DNA of 7,394 nucleotides. Source: a virus. Taxonomy: Duplodnaviria; Heunggongvirae; Uroviricota; Caudoviricetes. This document shows, one piece after another, positions 1 through 7,394 of this stretch. The stretch's first letter is position 1. The number at the start of each line of letters is the position of its first letter. The position numbers and the translations under genes were made by a program. The notes beneath the pieces are model-generated. The model made no database searches. It was not told the DNA's origin and saw nothing but the letters and a program-made list of their open reading frames with translations. Location: positions 1 through 7,394 of IMG/VR virus record IMGVR_UViG_2671180727_000001; one strand, given 5' to 3'.

Positions 1-1007
1 GTTGTGGCTGTTGAAGCAGACGATGCGGCACTTTCTGCCGATTTTCCGGCGGCGGTGGCACTGGCTGAGGCCTGCCCGGCACTTGTTGACGCGGCACTGG
101 CAGACGATGCAGCCGCTGTTTTTGAGCCTGCCGCAGCTGAGGCGCTCTGTCCCGCTGCCGTCTCAGAAGACCTGGCGTTCGTCTCGGACGTTTTTGCCGC
201 CTTCGCGGAATTTCCTGCCGCCGTTGCCGAGGAAGCTGCGCTACTGGCGCTCAAGGATGCGTTCGTTTCTGATGATTTCGCTGCCTCTTTTGAGGCCGCC
301 GCATCCCGGGCTGAGGTGGCAGCTTCTGACGCTTTCGTGGTCGCGGTGGATGCAGAAGTGGCTGCTGATTGTTGTGACGCTGCGGCATTCGTTTCAGATT
401 TTTTCGCAGCAGTTGCACTCGCACTTGCGGCACTTTGTGAGGATGCCGCAGCGGATGCACTTTGAGACGCTTGAGAGGCTTTTTCTCCAGCGGTATTGGC
501 GCTTTCTGCTGCTGCGGCAGCACTGGCCGCCGCCTCACGAGCTTTGTCGCCAGCAGCATCAATCGCGTCAGTGTTATTTTTATACCACTCAACGTTTTCG
601 TTGTGCTCGTTGACGATCTGCATTAGCGGCTTAACGGTTACTTCTGTACCGTCTTCACGCTCGATTGTCACCTCATCCAGAGCAGTCAACCAACTGCGCA
701 TAGACTTGGAATCAGCCGACATACGCGACATTAGTGCTGTAAAGCGCGCGCTAAACTGTGTTAAGTCGCCTTCATAGGTCGTAATGATTCGGCACGGAAC
801 TTCAGACTGAGTTTCGCCGGTATAAGGTTCTGAGAGAACAATGTTCGTATCACTGGTTACGCGCTTGATCTCATACAGTTTATTGTCGGGGCCAATGACG
901 ATCATCCCCGGCAACACACCATTAGCTGTTACGTTCCAGGCTGTCCCTGCCCCAACCAGAGTATTGCTACCCTGTGTAAATGTGATAGTACCTTCCCTGT
1001 ACCACAT
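1..1007 (-). CDS. stf: Side tail fibre protein, lambda Stf-like; N-terminal 335 codons only, 3' end lies beyond the window start
   Basis: Manual minus-strand translation from ATG at 1007..1005 is open for 335 codons to position 1 (MWYREGTITFTQGSNTLVGAGTAWNVTANGVLPGMIVIGPDNKLYEIKRVTSDTNIVLSEPYTGETQSEVPCRIITTYEGDLTQF...). From about position 540 downward it becomes an Ala/Ser/Thr-rich repeat region (...KKSETNAAASQQSAATSASTATTKASEAATSARDAAASKEAAKSSETNAS...) that is close to the repeat region of lambda Stf as I recall it. AAGGAG lies 10 nt upstream of the ATG. Not in the ORF track because there is no in-window stop. Confidence 0.8.
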   Translation of the reverse strand, partial: MWYREGTITFTQGSNTLVGAGTAWNVTANGVLPGMIVIGPDNKLYEIKRVTSDTNIVLSEPYTGETQSEVPCRIITTYEGDLTQFSARFTALMSRMSADSKSMRSWLTALDEVTIEREDGTEVTVKPLMQIVNEHNENVEWYKNNTDAIDAAGDKAREAAASAAAAAESANTAGEKASQASQSASAAASSQSAASASATAAKKSETNAAASQQSAATSASTATTKASEAATSARDAAASKEAAKSSETNASLSASSAASSATAAGNSAKAAKTSETNARSSETAAGQSASAAAGSKTAAASSASAASTSAGQASASATAAGKSAESAASSASTAT

Positions 1008-1028
1008 GTTGAATATGCTCCTTGATTT

Positions 1029-1065
1029 GGCGGGTTATCCTTGCCCGCCATTAAGTAATTACTTA
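1029..1065. promoter_or_regulatory. Intergenic inverted repeats between J stop and stf start: GGCGGG-N9-CCCGCC (1029-1049) and a perfect 14-bp palindrome TAAGTAATTACTTA (1052-1065)
   Basis: Read directly from the sequence. The GC hairpin sits immediately upstream of the stf Shine-Dalgarno on the minus strand. No U-tract follows it on either strand, so it is not a canonical intrinsic terminator. Function unknown. Confidence 0.3.
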
Positions 1066-1100
1066 CCTATTTTTACCGATATAAAATTTTTTTTCCACCA

Positions 1101-4100
1101 TCACAGACGGCCAATTCTTACTCGTAAGACGTTGTTATCGTCATAAACGTCAATCCGCTGACCATTTATAACCAATCGCCCATTGCCGCCGCTATTACCG
1201 TTGATCTCAAGCGTTCCATTTTTGCCGAACCGCCATCCAGATCTACCGCTAACAAAATTGGTAGATTGCAGATCGCCTACTTTTGCATTGGTGATTGTGC
1301 CATCCTTGATATACGCTCCATTCATATAGGCGATACTGTTTTCGATAACAAATGGCGTTGTGATCTTCCCGTTAACAGAGTTGACCAAACCAAACCTGTC
1401 CGCCTGAACCAAAAACTGAGATAGCCCAGTGGTGTCAATACCAAGCGCAATACCGGCAACATACTTCTGCCCTCCGCTCGTTGAAGTTTCCATTTTCAAC
1501 GTCCACGCGGTTGACACTTTTTTGTTGGTATCAGCAATAGCTGTTGCCTGCTGTTGAATTGTCGCGGTATTTCCATCCACCTCTGCTTTCAGAGTATCGA
1601 TTCGCCCACTCAGAGCATTATCTGCCTGCGTTCTCGCTGTCGTTTCAGTTGTTACCGCCGCGGAAATGTTGGCTGCCGTTTGAGACTCTAAGTTTGTGAT
1701 TTGAGTCGCCAATGCAGCATCTTGCTCTGTACGCGTTTTCGTTTCGGTTGCTACAGCCGCTTTAATATCCTCTTTGTATTGAGAGGTCAGCTTGGTGATC
1801 TGAGACGACAACGCCGAGTCAGCATCAGTTCGAGCCTGCGTTTCAACTGCAACGGCCGCACTAATATCTTTCGCTGTCTGTGCTTTTAAACTTGAAACCT
1901 CTTTTGTTAAAGCGGTATCACCATCTGCACGAGCCGTTGTTTCTCTGGCAAGAGACGCCTCGAGATCATTAGCTTTTGCTGTAAGAGACGTAATCTGGGT
2001 AGACAATGCACTATCGGCATCAGTCCTTGCTTTTGTCTCTACAGCAACCGCTGCGGCAATATCAGTTCCGGTTTGTGCTCGCAGGCTGTTAATTTCTCGT
2101 GAGAGCGCCTGGTCAGCACTTGCTCTGGCCTCCTGCTCCTGAGTGATGGCCGCGGATATATCACCGTCAACCTTTGACTGAAGCTGGTTTATTTGTTTGG
2201 CTAACGCAGAGTCCCCGCTTGCTCGGGCCTCCTGCTCACTACGTATTGCAGCAGAAATATCATCATCAACCTTTGCCTGAAGTTGGGTGATCTGGCTTGC
2301 CAGAGCCGAATCTTCCGTTGCTCGGGCTTCTTGCTCTTCCTTAATAGCTGCGACGATATCGTTGCTTACTTTCGACTCAAGCTGAGTGATCTGTGTCGTC
2401 AGAGCTTCATCGGCAGATGTACGAGCCTCCTGCTCTGTACTAATCGCCGCGCTGATATCTCCTTCAAACTTAGATTGCAGCTGAGTGACACGCTTTGCCA
2501 ACGCTTCATCGCCATCGGCACGAGCGGTGGACTCTTCCAGAATACTGGCCTTAATGTCTTCGCCAATTTCTACGCGAATTTCCTCAACCTTCGTGGCCAT
2601 TGCAGACATATCATCAGCAAAGGTTTTCTGTGTTGTTGCGATCTTCGCGTTATTGACCATCTGCTTGTGCTGGTCTTCATCTTGACGAAGAGCCAGGTCA
2701 ATATTTGTTTTGGCTAACGCCTCAATGTTCGTAGTCAGTTCTGCACTGGCACGATCGACCTCTGCAACCGTCTTTTTCATTTCTTCAACGGCAGCGGAGC
2801 TTTCCTCTACCGTTGACTGCAACACTTCCAGTTGTTTAGCGTTTGCAGCATCGCCTTCAACACGAGCCTCGCTTTCCTTAGCAATAAGAGCCGCCGCTTC
2901 ATCTCTTGCAGCCTTTATTGCCTCGACTGTATTAGCGAGAGCTTTATCGTGTTCAGATACGGTGTTTTCGATTTCAACAATTGCAGCATCAGTAGCATCA
3001 ATTTTTTCAAACGCTTCATTGACCTTGTCGATCGTTGCCGAAACCTCACCTTTAAGCTCGGTTTGTGCGTTCTCCAAAGCATCGCTACGCTCGTTGAATT
3101 TTATTTCAAAATCCGCGAGGTTATCGCTGAACTGCTTATCTAATTCAGCTATATCTTCCTTAACGTCGTTTACCGCCCCCTCCAAAGATTCGACGCTCTG
3201 GTTGATATGCTCATTTAACTCGTCAACTGCTTCTTGAGAGGCTTTGCTGTTGATGTCCTCAAGCAGAGCCTGACCAAGCTCGGAAGATGTAATTTTGCCA
3301 GTCAGGAACGACAGTACATCGCGAGTTGTCGCCTCTGTACCCAAGTTTGAGTTCGGAGGACTTAACATACCTCGCTTGTTCGATGCTCGAACCCAGTAAT
3401 ACCACGTTTCGCTATCCCCAAGACCAGCATGTGTAAAGGTGGTGCTTGCAGACTCTGCGATCAGTTTCGCCGTATCCAGATTGTTGGTCTGGGATGCGTA
3501 AACATTAATGTGATCAAGGTCTACCGAATCTGGATTAACCCAATTCAGTATCACATTACGATAGTCTCCAACGGCCGTTAATGACGTTGGGGCATCCGGC
3601 GGTGTCATTGTGCCCAACACCTGATAAACGGTACTGATAATCTCTGTTTTTTTACCGTTGAATGAAACCGCATACAGCTGGAAGTCGTAGCGTCCATTCT
3701 CCGCGACATTAACGATTTCGTATTGCTCTTCGGTTACACGCGCCGATTGCCAGTTCGATACATTGTTTTCATCAGAACGTCGCCAACTGATCCAATACTC
3801 TGGAGATTTCCCTTCCCATGTTGCAGTCAGTTTTACTGACAGGTTGCCCGGGCTTGAGAGATAAGTCCCTTCAGTGATTTGCAGATTAGATGGCTTGGAG
3901 TAAGTTGGGTCCAATACCGTCGTATTCTGCGGGATCAGCGTTGCACCATTGTCGATTGCCTCATATTTAGACGGATTGTTCTCAACAGCGGTGATGTCAA
4001 AGCTACCCGGCGTTTCCCCCTGCGCGATGTTAACGATGCGAACGCGCATAGGTTCGAGGTCTGGTTCTGTAATAGTCCAGACGCCGTTCAAAACAGGCGT

Positions 4101-5828
4101 TTCAGCCGAAGACAGGGCTTTTGAAAACGTAACTTTTGTTATATTTTCGCCAGTTTCAAGAACATCGCGTTCAACGATTTTGCCTTCCTGATTCAGTATT
4201 CGAATAAAGCAGCCGCCTTTGGCTAACGACACAGGCGCATCGAGTGTGACGCTGTTTTTGGTAAACGCCACAATTCGACCTGAGTTACGTTTGCCTGCGC
4301 GATATTTGTTCTGAATCAGAACGGTTTCACCAGGCATCAGAAATGACGCGTCTAAGCCGGCAGTAAATGTAATTACATCCGACTCCATTCTGGCGGTATA
4401 TAAAAGCCACAAACCAACTCGGTGAGCCTGCCCTCGGCTTGTACAGCCAAATGCTACGACTTCTGTTTTACGCTCACCATAACGGCGCATTGCGTCCTGA
4501 TCTTCGACGTACTCGATGTTTTGCTTATAACCGTCCTCCTTGTTGTTGTAGGTTACGAGCGCAACGGATGGGCGATCTTTACGCGCAGAACCTTTATAGG
4601 TAAACAATCCATCTTTGACGTTAGAGTTGGTAAACATCATTACCGGATCTGATGGGCTATCCTGCATGATGTTAACCATCCCACCAGCCCAAAACACCAT
4701 GCCGCGGAATGCTCCGGCAATATCCTGAATTAGCCGGTATGCGTCCTGTCGACTGGTGATCTGCGTATTGATTGCAAAGCGTTTCTCTTTGCCACCAAAG
4801 CCATCATCGACCTCTTCGTCACAATATCGACCAATCTGGTACAACTGGCCAAGGTCAATCATAGATTCCGACACATACTGACCAAGGCCATATCGAGCAT
4901 TGGTCAGCAAATCAAAGAGAATCCACGCGGGGTTCGAAGAAGACAACAGCTTAAAAGTGCCATCCCATACCCCAGCGTAAGTGTTACTGGACTCGTTATA
5001 GTTTGAAGGTACTCGAATTTTTAGGCCACGCACCAGATAAGAGCGAGATGGCATGGTGCTGCCGAATTGCTCAGAGTTTACCTTCAATCCAACCAAAACA
5101 GAGTTTGGATAGTTCATCGGTGTATCGACAATTTCCCCGATTGAATCCACCCATGTATCGTTATAGAGATACTGGCTACTGTTATCATCGGTAATACGGA
5201 CCACACGAACCTTGTATGCTCGTCCAGGCTTAGGCAGCTTCAGCTCATAGCTACGGTAATAAACGCCGGTCTTCTTTGCTGTTAGCTTAATGCCAACGCT
5301 TTTTTCACCTTCAGCGACCACATCTACAAATGTTGAGTCGCCATTTGCTATCTGGAACTTGTACTCAACAGTCGTACCGTTCGTGTCACCAGTTTTTTTA
5401 TCTATGCTTCGCAAAGAAGGAAACTTCATGATGACACGAACCCGATCAGCTTCATCGTTATCGATTGAAACCGTTACATAATGTGTTTTTTTTAACTGGA
5501 TATTGACGGATTTAGGCGTTTCAACGAAATCAAAGCCAGACATTGGAGTCTGGTCTTGTGAACCGTCGCGAAAATCCCATGTGATTCCGCTGAAGTTGGA
5601 GGAACCGTCTTCATTTACAATCGGCAGATCGTCGATAAAAATAGATCTTGCGCCATTTACCAAGCCGCCAATTACCCCTTCCCCAAGAAGATCGAGGATA
5701 GCGGCCATTGCACGAGAATTTACGGTATCGTCGGCTTCAACCGGTGTACGGCTAGAGCTTTTGCTGCTTTTTTTACCACCCGCACCTGCAATAAACAGCG
5801 GTAACTTTTTCTTCTTGAACTGTTCCAT
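1101..5828 (-). CDS. J: Host specificity / central tail fibre protein, lambda gpJ-like, with a greatly expanded coiled-coil insertion (about 1575 aa)
   Basis: ORF-track ORF 1101..5834 (TTG); I prefer the in-frame ATG at 5828, two codons in, with AAGGA upstream. The N-terminal ~880 aa match lambda J as recalled (e.g. NYPNSVLVGLKVNSEQFGSTMPSRSYLVRGLKIRVPSNYNESSNTYAGVWDGTFK against lambda CYPNTALVGVQVDSEQFGSQQVSRNYHLRGRILQVPSNYNPQTRQYSGIWDGTFK; also FGCTSRGQAHRVGLWLL and the GKITSSELG motif). The C-terminal GGQKYVAGIALGID...LSQFLVQADRFGLVNS matches lambda KHYVAGIGLSMED...LSQFLVAANRIAFID. Stop TGA at 1103..1101. Confidence 0.9.
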   Translation of the reverse strand: MEQFKKKKLPLFIAGAGGKKSSKSSSRTPVEADDTVNSRAMAAILDLLGEGVIGGLVNGARSIFIDDLPIVNEDGSSNFSGITWDFRDGSQDQTPMSGFDFVETPKSVNIQLKKTHYVTVSIDNDEADRVRVIMKFPSLRSIDKKTGDTNGTTVEYKFQIANGDSTFVDVVAEGEKSVGIKLTAKKTGVYYRSYELKLPKPGRAYKVRVVRITDDNSSQYLYNDTWVDSIGEIVDTPMNYPNSVLVGLKVNSEQFGSTMPSRSYLVRGLKIRVPSNYNESSNTYAGVWDGTFKLLSSSNPAWILFDLLTNARYGLGQYVSESMIDLGQLYQIGRYCDEEVDDGFGGKEKRFAINTQITSRQDAYRLIQDIAGAFRGMVFWAGGMVNIMQDSPSDPVMMFTNSNVKDGLFTYKGSARKDRPSVALVTYNNKEDGYKQNIEYVEDQDAMRRYGERKTEVVAFGCTSRGQAHRVGLWLLYTARMESDVITFTAGLDASFLMPGETVLIQNKYRAGKRNSGRIVAFTKNSVTLDAPVSLAKGGCFIRILNQEGKIVERDVLETGENITKVTFSKALSSAETPVLNGVWTITEPDLEPMRVRIVNIAQGETPGSFDITAVENNPSKYEAIDNGATLIPQNTTVLDPTYSKPSNLQITEGTYLSSPGNLSVKLTATWEGKSPEYWISWRRSDENNVSNWQSARVTEEQYEIVNVAENGRYDFQLYAVSFNGKKTEIISTVYQVLGTMTPPDAPTSLTAVGDYRNVILNWVNPDSVDLDHINVYASQTNNLDTAKLIAESASTTFTHAGLGDSETWYYWVRASNKRGMLSPPNSNLGTEATTRDVLSFLTGKITSSELGQALLEDINSKASQEAVDELNEHINQSVESLEGAVNDVKEDIAELDKQFSDNLADFEIKFNERSDALENAQTELKGEVSATIDKVNEAFEKIDATDAAIVEIENTVSEHDKALANTVEAIKAARDEAAALIAKESEARVEGDAANAKQLEVLQSTVEESSAAVEEMKKTVAEVDRASAELTTNIEALAKTNIDLALRQDEDQHKQMVNNAKIATTQKTFADDMSAMATKVEEIRVEIGEDIKASILEESTARADGDEALAKRVTQLQSKFEGDISAAISTEQEARTSADEALTTQITQLESKVSNDIVAAIKEEQEARATEDSALASQITQLQAKVDDDISAAIRSEQEARASGDSALAKQINQLQSKVDGDISAAITQEQEARASADQALSREINSLRAQTGTDIAAAVAVETKARTDADSALSTQITSLTAKANDLEASLARETTARADGDTALTKEVSSLKAQTAKDISAAVAVETQARTDADSALSSQITKLTSQYKEDIKAAVATETKTRTEQDAALATQITNLESQTAANISAAVTTETTARTQADNALSGRIDTLKAEVDGNTATIQQQATAIADTNKKVSTAWTLKMETSTSGGQKYVAGIALGIDTTGLSQFLVQADRFGLVNSVNGKITTPFVIENSIAYMNGAYIKDGTITNAKVGDLQSTNFVSGRSGWRFGKNGTLEINGNSGGNGRLVINGQRIDVYDDNNVLRVRIGRL
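1572..2558 (-). repeat. About ten imperfect tandem 99-bp (33-codon) repeats inside J, encoding DISAAIxxEQEARxxADxALxxQITQLxSKVxx-type units
   Basis: The translation shows consecutive 33-residue units (DISAAISTEQEARTSADEALTTQITQLESKVSN / DIVAAIKEEQEARATEDSALASQITQLQAKVDD / DISAAIRSEQEARASGDSALAKQINQLQSKVDG / ...). At DNA level a recurring motif appears at ~100-bp spacing (gctctggcctcctgctc near 2122, gctcgggcctcctgctc near 2220, gctcgggcttcttgctc near 2320, acgagcctcctgctc near 2421). Confidence 0.7.
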
Positions 5829-5846
5829 GTTCAAAAAAATCCTTGT

Positions 5847-6440
5847 TTACATTAGCTGGTCAATCGTGATTGAAGAACTCACAACCTGTGAGCCAACCAG
5901 AATTTCCTCGCCATAGATAAGTTGTACTGGGTTGCCCTGGTTTTCTGTATTTTGAGGGCCGTCGAAATAATAAGAGTTCGAGTTATCTGCCTGTCTCACA
6001 CTTTCGTTAGTGGCTTGCGGCGATATGATTTGTGATATGCCGCCCATCATCAGTGACAAACCGAGAGGTGCTAAAGCAGGCATCACTACCGCCGATACAA
6101 CCAACAAAGCGGCCCCTACTACCGTCTGAAACCACCCAAAAGCAGATCCACCGCTTCCTCGCGGAACAGGTGTAATGCGGATTTTGGCAATGTTGTCAGA
6201 CTGCCCCATCATCTGATATTCACTTTCGTCAACAGACCACTTGTGGCCCTGTTTATTGGTGATCTGGATGTGGTAACGGTCATAGGTTTTGATATTGCGC
6301 TTCATCCATGCTTTAAACCCAGGCTTGTTGGCCTCAATTAAATCCAGAGCCTGTTTTGTATTGCGCACCTTTAGATGCCAGTGGCGGCCAAAATGTTTGG
6401 CCATAGGGCCGCCAAGCTGCACATGAACTAACTCAGACAC
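5847..6440 (-). CDS. I: Tail assembly protein, lambda gpI-like (197 aa from GTG)
   Basis: ORF-track ORF; start is GTG at 6440..6438 with GGGAG upstream; a later ATG at 6404 is an alternative. The N-terminus VQLGGPMAKHFGRHWHLKVRNTKQALDLIEANKPGFKAWM resembles the recalled lambda gpI N-terminus (VRLYGDLADRFG...ANYPGFQSAM). The C-terminal half has a Gly-rich segment followed by a hydrophobic stretch (PRGSGGSAFGWFQTVVGAALLVVSAVVMPALAPLGLSLMMGG). Position between K and J matches lambda gene order. Confidence 0.8.
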   Translation of the reverse strand: MSELVHVQLGGPMAKHFGRHWHLKVRNTKQALDLIEANKPGFKAWMKRNIKTYDRYHIQITNKQGHKWSVDESEYQMMGQSDNIAKIRITPVPRGSGGSAFGWFQTVVGAALLVVSAVVMPALAPLGLSLMMGGISQIISPQATNESVRQADNSNSYYFDGPQNTENQGNPVQLIYGEEILVGSQVVSSSITIDQLM

Positions 6441-7225
6441 GTCTCATCTCCCTTGAGCAAGTCTCTGTGACGCAAGTGATGCGTCGTATGTTTCTGATAC
6501 ATTCCGCCGTAATAAGCACGACAACTAAGACGGTCGATCTGGTGATGAAGAATCATTCCATCGCCGATATAAACCGCGCAGTGATCTGGCATTTTCCCGT
6601 ATTGAATAAAGAAGACGTCCCCACGTTGAGGCTCTGTTCCAGGTGCAAGCCGTACCAATCCCTCGTTTCGGTAGTTCTGGTCGAGAATGTCGTTATCGCC
6701 GGTGTACCACGATGGAATATGCAGGTGTGCGTTCGGGTTAAGCTCGACGTTAAACTCACGCTTCAAATAGTCCCGACACAACATCCAGCAATCGAATACG
6801 CCAAATACATACGGTCTACCCAGGTATGGCATTTCGAAACCATCAGGTGTGATCACATTCATCTCGCTAAAATGGAAAGGGGCATCTCCCTCAACATTCT
6901 TGCGAATAGCCAGAATCATCCACGGAACTTCCGTCGCTTCACAGCCTGCACGATCGGCATCAGATGCTTCTGCTGATTCATCAGTATGTGAATGCCAGAT
7001 TGCGATTACGTCACCTGCATCCTCTGCCGCCATAATGTCGTCAACGTGCATTACAAAAGTGTTCTGCGGGTTCTCCGAAACATTTCGCGCTTCCATAAAG
7101 CGATATTTGTCGCCATTAGTTCTCACCAGAAAGCCACACGCTTCATTAGGGTAGCGATTTATGGCGCAGAGATAGATTTGCTGCATAACATCAGAGCCAA
7201 GCTCAGGGATTGCTTTATTACCCAT
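6428..7225 (-). CDS. K: Tail assembly protein, lambda gpK-like, with MPN/JAMM and NlpC/P60 domains (266 aa from ATG)
   Basis: ORF-track ORF 6428..7252 starts at TTG; I prefer the ATG at 7225..7223, which has GGAG 9 nt upstream. The JAMM motif H-x-H-x7-S-x2-D is present as HSHTDESAEASDAD, preceded by PNEACGFLV. NlpC/P60-like Cys and His contexts are present (GVFDCWMLCRDYL; HCAVYIGDGMILHH). The stop overlaps the I start by 13 nt. Confidence 0.85.
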   Translation of the reverse strand: MGNKAIPELGSDVMQQIYLCAINRYPNEACGFLVRTNGDKYRFMEARNVSENPQNTFVMHVDDIMAAEDAGDVIAIWHSHTDESAEASDADRAGCEATEVPWMILAIRKNVEGDAPFHFSEMNVITPDGFEMPYLGRPYVFGVFDCWMLCRDYLKREFNVELNPNAHLHIPSWYTGDNDILDQNYRNEGLVRLAPGTEPQRGDVFFIQYGKMPDHCAVYIGDGMILHHQIDRLSCRAYYGGMYQKHTTHHLRHRDLLKGDETCLS

Positions 7226-7294
7226 ATCGCGTAGCTCCAATAAACCCGCCAAAATGGATCACTCCGTTGGCAAAATAATTCCGACGCGCATTAC
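7218..7294 (-). pseudogene. L: 3'-terminal remnant (24 codons plus stop) of a lambda gpL-like tail tip assembly gene, truncated at the IS boundary
   Basis: Minus-strand frame reads ...NARRNYFANGVIHFGGFIGATRYG* and resembles the lambda gpL C-terminus as recalled (...KFRNNVGNFGGFLSINKLSQ*). Its TAA stop overlaps the K start (ATGGGTAA), as in lambda L/K coupling. The frame is cut at 7294/7295 by the IS end and no L N-terminus is present in the window. Confidence 0.55.
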
Positions 7295-7394
7295 TGAACC
7301 GCCCCGGGAATCCTGGAGACTAAACTTCCTGAGAAAGAGGTAAACAGGATGACTAAAAATACTCGTTTTTCCCCTGAAGTCCGTCAACGGGCAG
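7295..7394 (+). mobile_element. Left end (IRL plus leader) of an IS3-family insertion sequence, IS629/IS1203-like; continues beyond the window
   Basis: The sequence from 7295, TGAACCGCCCCGGGAATCCTGGAGACTAAACTTCCTGAGAAAGAGGTAAACAGGATG..., begins with the TG dinucleotide typical of IS3-family ends and matches my recollection of the IS629/IS1203 left terminus. It is followed by the orfA start. Only one end is visible, so the target-site duplication cannot be assessed. Confidence 0.8.
7359..7394 (+). CDS. IS3-family transposase OrfA, N-terminal 12 codons (partial)
   Basis: ATG at 7359 is preceded by GAGAAAGAGG (SD) with 8-nt spacing. The translation MTKNTRFSPEVRQRA matches the N-terminus of IS629/IS1203-type OrfA (HTH protein) as recalled. 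Not in the ORF track because there is no stop in the window. Confidence 0.8.
   Translation, partial: MLVFPLKSVNGQ

Follow-up and report, generated by a model that had tools for sequence, protein, structure and literature searches.

IS629 left end next to a truncated minor tail protein gene L in a predicted SSU5-group Escherichia phage-plasmid

Tail genes and the interruption of L

The window, i.e., the whole analysed stretch of 7,394 nt, carries a series of phage tail genes on its minus strand and, at its right edge, the beginning of an insertion sequence on the plus strand. Three of the tail genes are intact: K (6428..7225, minus strand, 265 aa), encoding a tail tip assembly protein with JAB/MPN and NlpC/P60 domains (PF14464, PF00877; WP_001405045.1 in pSCU-306-2), I (5847..6440, minus strand, 197 aa), encoding a tail assembly protein (WP_001293195.1 in pSCU-306-2) with 0 differences from the locus L002 in this range, and J (1101..5828, minus strand, 1575 aa), encoding the tail tip or host-specificity protein with the Pfam domains Phage-tail_3 and FNIII-A_GpJ, the exact sequence of which is present in 1578 blocks of a public assembly collection. 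They are followed by the 5' part of a tail-fibre gene, stf (1..1007, minus strand), whose frame is open over 335 codons from an ATG at 1007 and is cut by the window start. The stretch 6400-7294 is 100% identical by megablast to many intact plasmids, including pSCU-306-2, and the gene order, with L overlapping K and the succession M-L-K-I-J, is matched in intact loci. This DNA identity with pSCU-306-2, together with the exact J protein and the open tail-fibre frame, bears out the earlier sequence-only reading, according to which K, I, J and the start of the tail-fibre gene looked intact.

The tail-fibre ATG at 1007 (MWYREGTITF...; window 624-1007, minus strand) lies 94 nt after the J stop and serves as the start in some gene calls (1341 aa); the PGAP start lies about 384 nt later, near 623, so that a 477-nt stretch lacks annotation. 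Past roughly residue 150 the tail-fibre translation is Ala/Ser-rich and of low complexity. The left end of the window was checked as well, and neither a repeat nor a divergence point was found there.

Upstream of K, the window holds only the 3' remnant of the gene for the minor tail (tail-tip) protein L (7218..7294, minus strand), corresponding to nt 623-699 of 699 and identical to WP_000511446.1. These last 77 nt of the gene run from two bases of codon 208 through codons 209-232 to the stop; the translation of 7218-7292 (minus strand), NARRNYFANGVIHFGGFIGATRYG followed by the stop, equals residues 209-232 of WP_000511446.1, which is annotated as 'phage minor tail protein L'. The two genes overlap by 8 nt, ATGGGTAA, a stretch that includes the K start (7225-7223) and the L stop (7220-7218). 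Translation and protein identity hence agree with the 24-residue L remnant and the stop-start overlap that had been described from the letters alone. The proposed similarity of this frame to the C-termini of gpL proteins likewise holds, since the intact WP_000511446.1 matches PF05100 (Phage_tail_L) with 6e-97 over profile positions 3-206 of 206, i.e., to the last position, and lambda gpL (PDB 8iyk_L) with 2e-44, aligned through residue 228. The likeness to lambda gpL thus comprises PF05100 over the full length of this L and all four cysteines of the intact protein (169, 178, 201 and 208), each of which aligns with a gpL cysteine. The gene is broken at nt 622/623, directly after the Cys208 codon; the last 24 codons are now cut off from whatever precedes them, and the conserved FGGF motif sits in this lost C-terminus. 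A protein cluster at 90% identity that holds L (232-243 aa) also contains K (265 aa, C40 peptidase), and the presence of these unrelated neighbours in one cluster suggests a fused or mis-called L-K product joining them.

The right edge of the window (7295..7394, plus strand) is the left end of IS629, covering the first 100 nt of the 1310-bp element. By sequence comparison it matches nt 1-100 of IS629 in LC567828 at 100/100 positions with 0 mismatches, this reference copy being 1310 bp long and annotated as IS3 family, IS629, with the TSD TAA; both IS629 copies of plasmid pSCU-306-2 are also identical to it at 100/100 positions. The alignment begins precisely at the IS terminus TGAACCGCCCCGGG, and the left terminal inverted repeat TGAACCGCCCCGGGAATCCTGGAGA (7295..7319, plus strand) is identical to the IS629 left repeat. 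In full copies, the left and the reverse-complemented right end of the 25-bp inverted repeat agree at 23/25 positions with two mismatches, as counted by eye from their 30-nt ends. The IS629 orfA starts at the ATG at 7349 (MTKNTRFSPEVRQRA...; 7349..7394, plus strand), as in the full pSCU-306-2 copy, and is cut by the window end; only 15 of its codons lie in the window, identical to orfA of full IS629 copies. The orfA runs opposite to the tail genes and points away from them. In full IS629 reference copies, the orfA product matches PF01527 (HTH_Tnp_1), the downstream frame is the rve integrase core, and the PGAP annotation marks a programmed frameshift. In the IS3 family, orfB carries the DDE (rve) domain and is made by -1 frameshifting as OrfAB, and IS629, a member of this family, transposes by a copy-out/paste-in route with a DDE transposase. 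The 100/100 match upholds the earlier assignment to the IS629 group of the IS3 family, the placement of the left end at 7295 and the orientation of the element. What can be seen of the window copy, its 25-bp left inverted repeat and the opening 15 codons of orfA included, does not differ from IS629; about 1210 nt of the element lie beyond the window, and 100 nt are too short to tell IS629 from its near-identical isoforms (IS1203/IS3411). A Rfam scan of the window gave no matches.

The host element

Positions 1-7294 are collinear with, and 99.7% identical to, the stf-J-I-K-L region of Escherichia plasmids of about 110 kb such as p20170902CC-1, from which they differ by 19 substitutions and one intergenic 1-nt indel over 7294 nt; E. 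albertii plasmids are equally close. The sole indel is an extra A at 5833 in the I-J intergenic spacer. Identity is 97% to the Escherichia phages Cyrano and PhiR41_1 and 82% to Salmonella phage SSU5, and 757 of the 784 matching PLSDB records are typed as non-mobilizable. A 400-nt probe with the insertion site in its middle detected the L-K site in 203 of 5426 complete E. coli genomes, in all cases on plasmids and uninterrupted, with 0 chromosomal copies. The plasmids carrying the module in complete genomes measure about 95-160 kb, and some 6 kb past stf, relatives carry ParA-like and toxin-antitoxin genes. Because 203/203 copies reside on plasmids and none on a chromosome, and because the window is collinear with plasmids of about 110 kb, the host element is, as judged from its sequence, an SSU5-group phage-plasmid.

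The earlier reading had pointed to a probable defective prophage. The disruption of L stands, whereas the implied chromosomal lambdoid frame does not, since all complete-genome copies are plasmid-borne; a chromosomal lambdoid prophage of the O157 type, with Sp/CP-933 tail modules, was rejected as the host because the L-K region has 0 chromosomal places in the 5426 genomes. The module shares the order M-L-K-I-J-stf with the lambda tail module Z-U-V-G-T-H-M-L-K-I-J; unlike lambda or a chromosomal lambdoid prophage, the element described here is a plasmid-borne relative. It also differs from the other SSU5-group phage-plasmids (e.g., p20170902CC-1, pSCU-306-2, Cyrano and PhiR41_1, with SSU5 as the prototype): L is uninterrupted at this site in 203/203 complete E. 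coli genomes with the module, whereas here it is cut.

An E. albertii plasmid that lacks an L annotation (NZ_CP099896.1) was considered as a second interrupted case and discarded, there being no room for an IS; it looks like an annotation gap. Two assembly contigs (383 kb and 221 kb) follow the plasmid up to locus positions 16299 and 16125, respectively, and diverge there. They carry an identical J and upstream tail module, followed by a different tail-fibre C-terminus and a tail-fibre assembly gene, and run on into chromosomal-looking genes for an MFS transporter, a mannitol dehydrogenase and an omptin. These contigs are either assembly chimeras via the shared tail-fibre sequence or rare integrations or recombinants.

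The junction and its origin

Only the first 100 nt of the IS fall inside the window, so that orfB, the right inverted repeat, the target duplication and the 5' 622 nt of L lie beyond its edge. In a simple insertion, IS629 would have landed directly behind codon 208, which encodes the last of the four cysteines of the gpL iron-sulfur site (Cys208), and the far side of the element would carry L nt 1-625/626 with a 3-4 bp duplication, so that the plus strand would read ...GGGGCGGTTCA, then TAC or TTAC, then AGGCGTCATAACG, with L nt ≤626. The left junction (26-33 nt) gave 0 matches in GTDB genome contigs, JGI metagenome contigs and IMG/VR, and so did the right-junction pattern in the same three collections, with a duplication of 2-5 bp allowed. 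Megablast with 6400-7394 returned no record that runs across the junction in complete E. coli genomes, PLSDB or phage records, and the junction-crossing 42-aa ORF (7259-7387, minus strand) is absent from protein records. At the protein level, the look-ups covered 15 products for duplications of 0-5 bp, at full length and, for the 3- and 4-bp duplications, also cut at typical assembler overhangs. A collection of 15 billion proteins contains none of the 12 products with IS-derived residues, among them the L(1-208)+IS fusion proteins predicted for duplications of 3 or 4 bp.

The bare L(1-208) truncation is on record: NCBI lists it as WP_181264207.1 ('partial'), and seven Logan/ENA contigs of unrelated samples also encode it. 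These contigs stop at L nt 624, 625 or 626, at the same spot as the IS join of the window, and hold 0 IS bases. Among 11 control truncations only three exist, i.e., lengths 203, 204 and 210 with 1-2 contigs each, and eight other lengths gave none. Codon 208 is a contig-end hotspot because neighbouring truncation lengths are rarer. A de Bruijn assembly with k = 31 of a homogeneous IS insertion is expected to keep about 30 IS bases. With k = 31, a T/G polymorphism that is common at nt 594 accounts for the contigs ending at 624 only. Possible causes of the codon-208 contig ends are a population mixture, the nt 594 polymorphism with k = 31, or another insertion. No tie of these truncations to IS629 was found, and we did not count them as evidence for the partner flank.

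Taken together, IS629 has probably transposed, recently and by simple insertion, into gene L of an SSU5-group Escherichia phage-plasmid. A join exactly at the first nucleotide of the IS is what transposition leaves behind. Moreover, a plasmid of this family, pSCU-306-2, carries complete IS629 copies that are simple insertions flanked by duplications of 3-4 bp. In O157 genomes, 62% of the IS629 copies lie in phage-derived DNA, a preference with which the present copy agrees, and the duplications measure 3-4 bp (PMC3271280). Against a simple insertion stands that neither the left nor the right junction nor L-IS fusion proteins occur in any searched collection. The sequence-only reading had offered either a recent insertion or continued selection on the tail genes, and the former is the better of the two, given a flank that is 100% identical over 895 nt, an IS end matching at 100/100 positions, and 203 uninterrupted sites at the same locus in complete genomes. 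The insertion looks recent because the 895-nt flank and the IS end are without differences and K, I and J are undecayed.

An IS629-mediated rearrangement is a less likely origin: during transposition or afterwards, the tail and head genes upstream would have been lost or moved elsewhere, by recombination between IS629 copies or by a deletion next to the element. The IS would in that case join K-I-J-stf to unrelated DNA, and the outcome might be a deleted phage-plasmid, a cointegrate with another replicon or a fragment integrated into the chromosome. Later IS-mediated deletion, inversion or cointegration is nevertheless a real alternative in view of the O157 genomes, in which only 21/47 IS629 copies keep their target duplication and more than half are without matching duplications (PMC3271280). 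Two IS629 copies about 10 kb apart coexist in the tail region of pSCU-306-2, and the failure to find L-IS right-end fusion proteins and right-junction DNA would also suit a rearrangement. However, the left junction is equally absent, so that the source is probably missing from the collections and these negatives weigh little; positive evidence for a foreign flank was not found, and every complete-genome copy of the module sits on a plasmid of about 95-160 kb, none on a chromosome. Far less credible is an assembly artefact, with tail reads misjoined to a multi-copy IS, or a minority variant beside which intact L persists. The uniqueness of the junction among everything searched speaks for it, and the short-read contigs from unrelated samples that end at L nt 624-626 without IS would fit populations with both intact and interrupted copies. 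Yet the join falls exactly on IS629 nt 1, a position that only about 1 in 1300 random chimeras would be expected to strike, and the flank is error-free.

Probable consequences for the tail, and related insertions

Lambda L is required for tail-tip assembly. The L frame is broken whether a simple insertion or a rearrangement is assumed, and by analogy with lambda, virion formation would be expected to fail; tail function and infectious virions should be lost. Under the preferred reading of a simple insertion, the truncated L would be non-functional, no infectious virions would be made, and the element would persist by plasmid replication and partition. The strain's SSU5-type phage-plasmid can thus probably not build tails and would spread only vertically, as a plasmid, and what the tail defect leaves would be an element maintained as a plasmid, not a chromosomal remnant in decay.

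The expression of the genes beyond the IS might be affected as well. The late-promoter expression of K-I-J-stf would probably be reduced, the K start would no longer be coupled to the translation of L, and Rho-dependent termination could act on 1.3 kb of antisense IS RNA that is not translated. The polar block of the tail operon proposed from the sequence alone is plausible but conjectural, above all as a complete block. On the antisense strand of IS629 we found no convincing intrinsic terminator, the best candidate being a weak 5-bp hairpin with a T-run that is not above chance, and a scan of the junction and the antisense IS detected no outward promoter above chance. K retains its own GGAG ribosome site, and with lambda-like antitermination of late transcription, read-through would be expected.

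Good descriptions already exist of IS629, of SSU5-group phage-plasmids and of tail proteins of the gpL type, and phage-plasmids decaying into plasmids are a pattern that has been discussed (PMC10879196). The insertion in L itself is undocumented in the searched collections and is a strain-specific case of a known process, adding one more case of IS elements inactivating phage structural genes. The probable inability to build tails would matter should the element carry resistance genes or be counted as an 'intact' phage.

Insertions in the same module were found in three complete sister plasmids (pSCU-306-2, p19KM1803_1 and the plasmid of strain 3385). In each of them an IS3-family element has independently entered J; the site differs among the three, and both orientations occur. 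These cases share the plasmid family, the IS family and the tail module with the window and differ from it in the gene hit (J) and in that the copies are seen complete. IS insertions in the tail module of the SSU5-group plasmid family are recurrent, and some highly similar plasmids of this group are reported to differ in nothing but the gain or loss of IS elements (bioRxiv 10.1101/2025.09.12.675607). The IS629 copy in L may also mark a transition from phage-plasmid to pure plasmid, or a fusion to another replicon or the chromosome via IS629 homology, a suggestion that we consider improbable; if true, it would, with the J hits in three sister plasmids, point to a recurrent and possibly selected loss of virions in Escherichia SSU5-group phage-plasmids.

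In pSCU-306-2, the IS629 copies lie at locus coordinates 4657-5963 and 14649-15958. The copy in J is flanked by a GTA duplication, as read on both sides; the other copy lies in a small gene that precedes the tape-measure gene. The IS3-family copies in the other two sister loci span 5649-6877 (p19KM1803_1) and 2207-3376 (plasmid of strain 3385).
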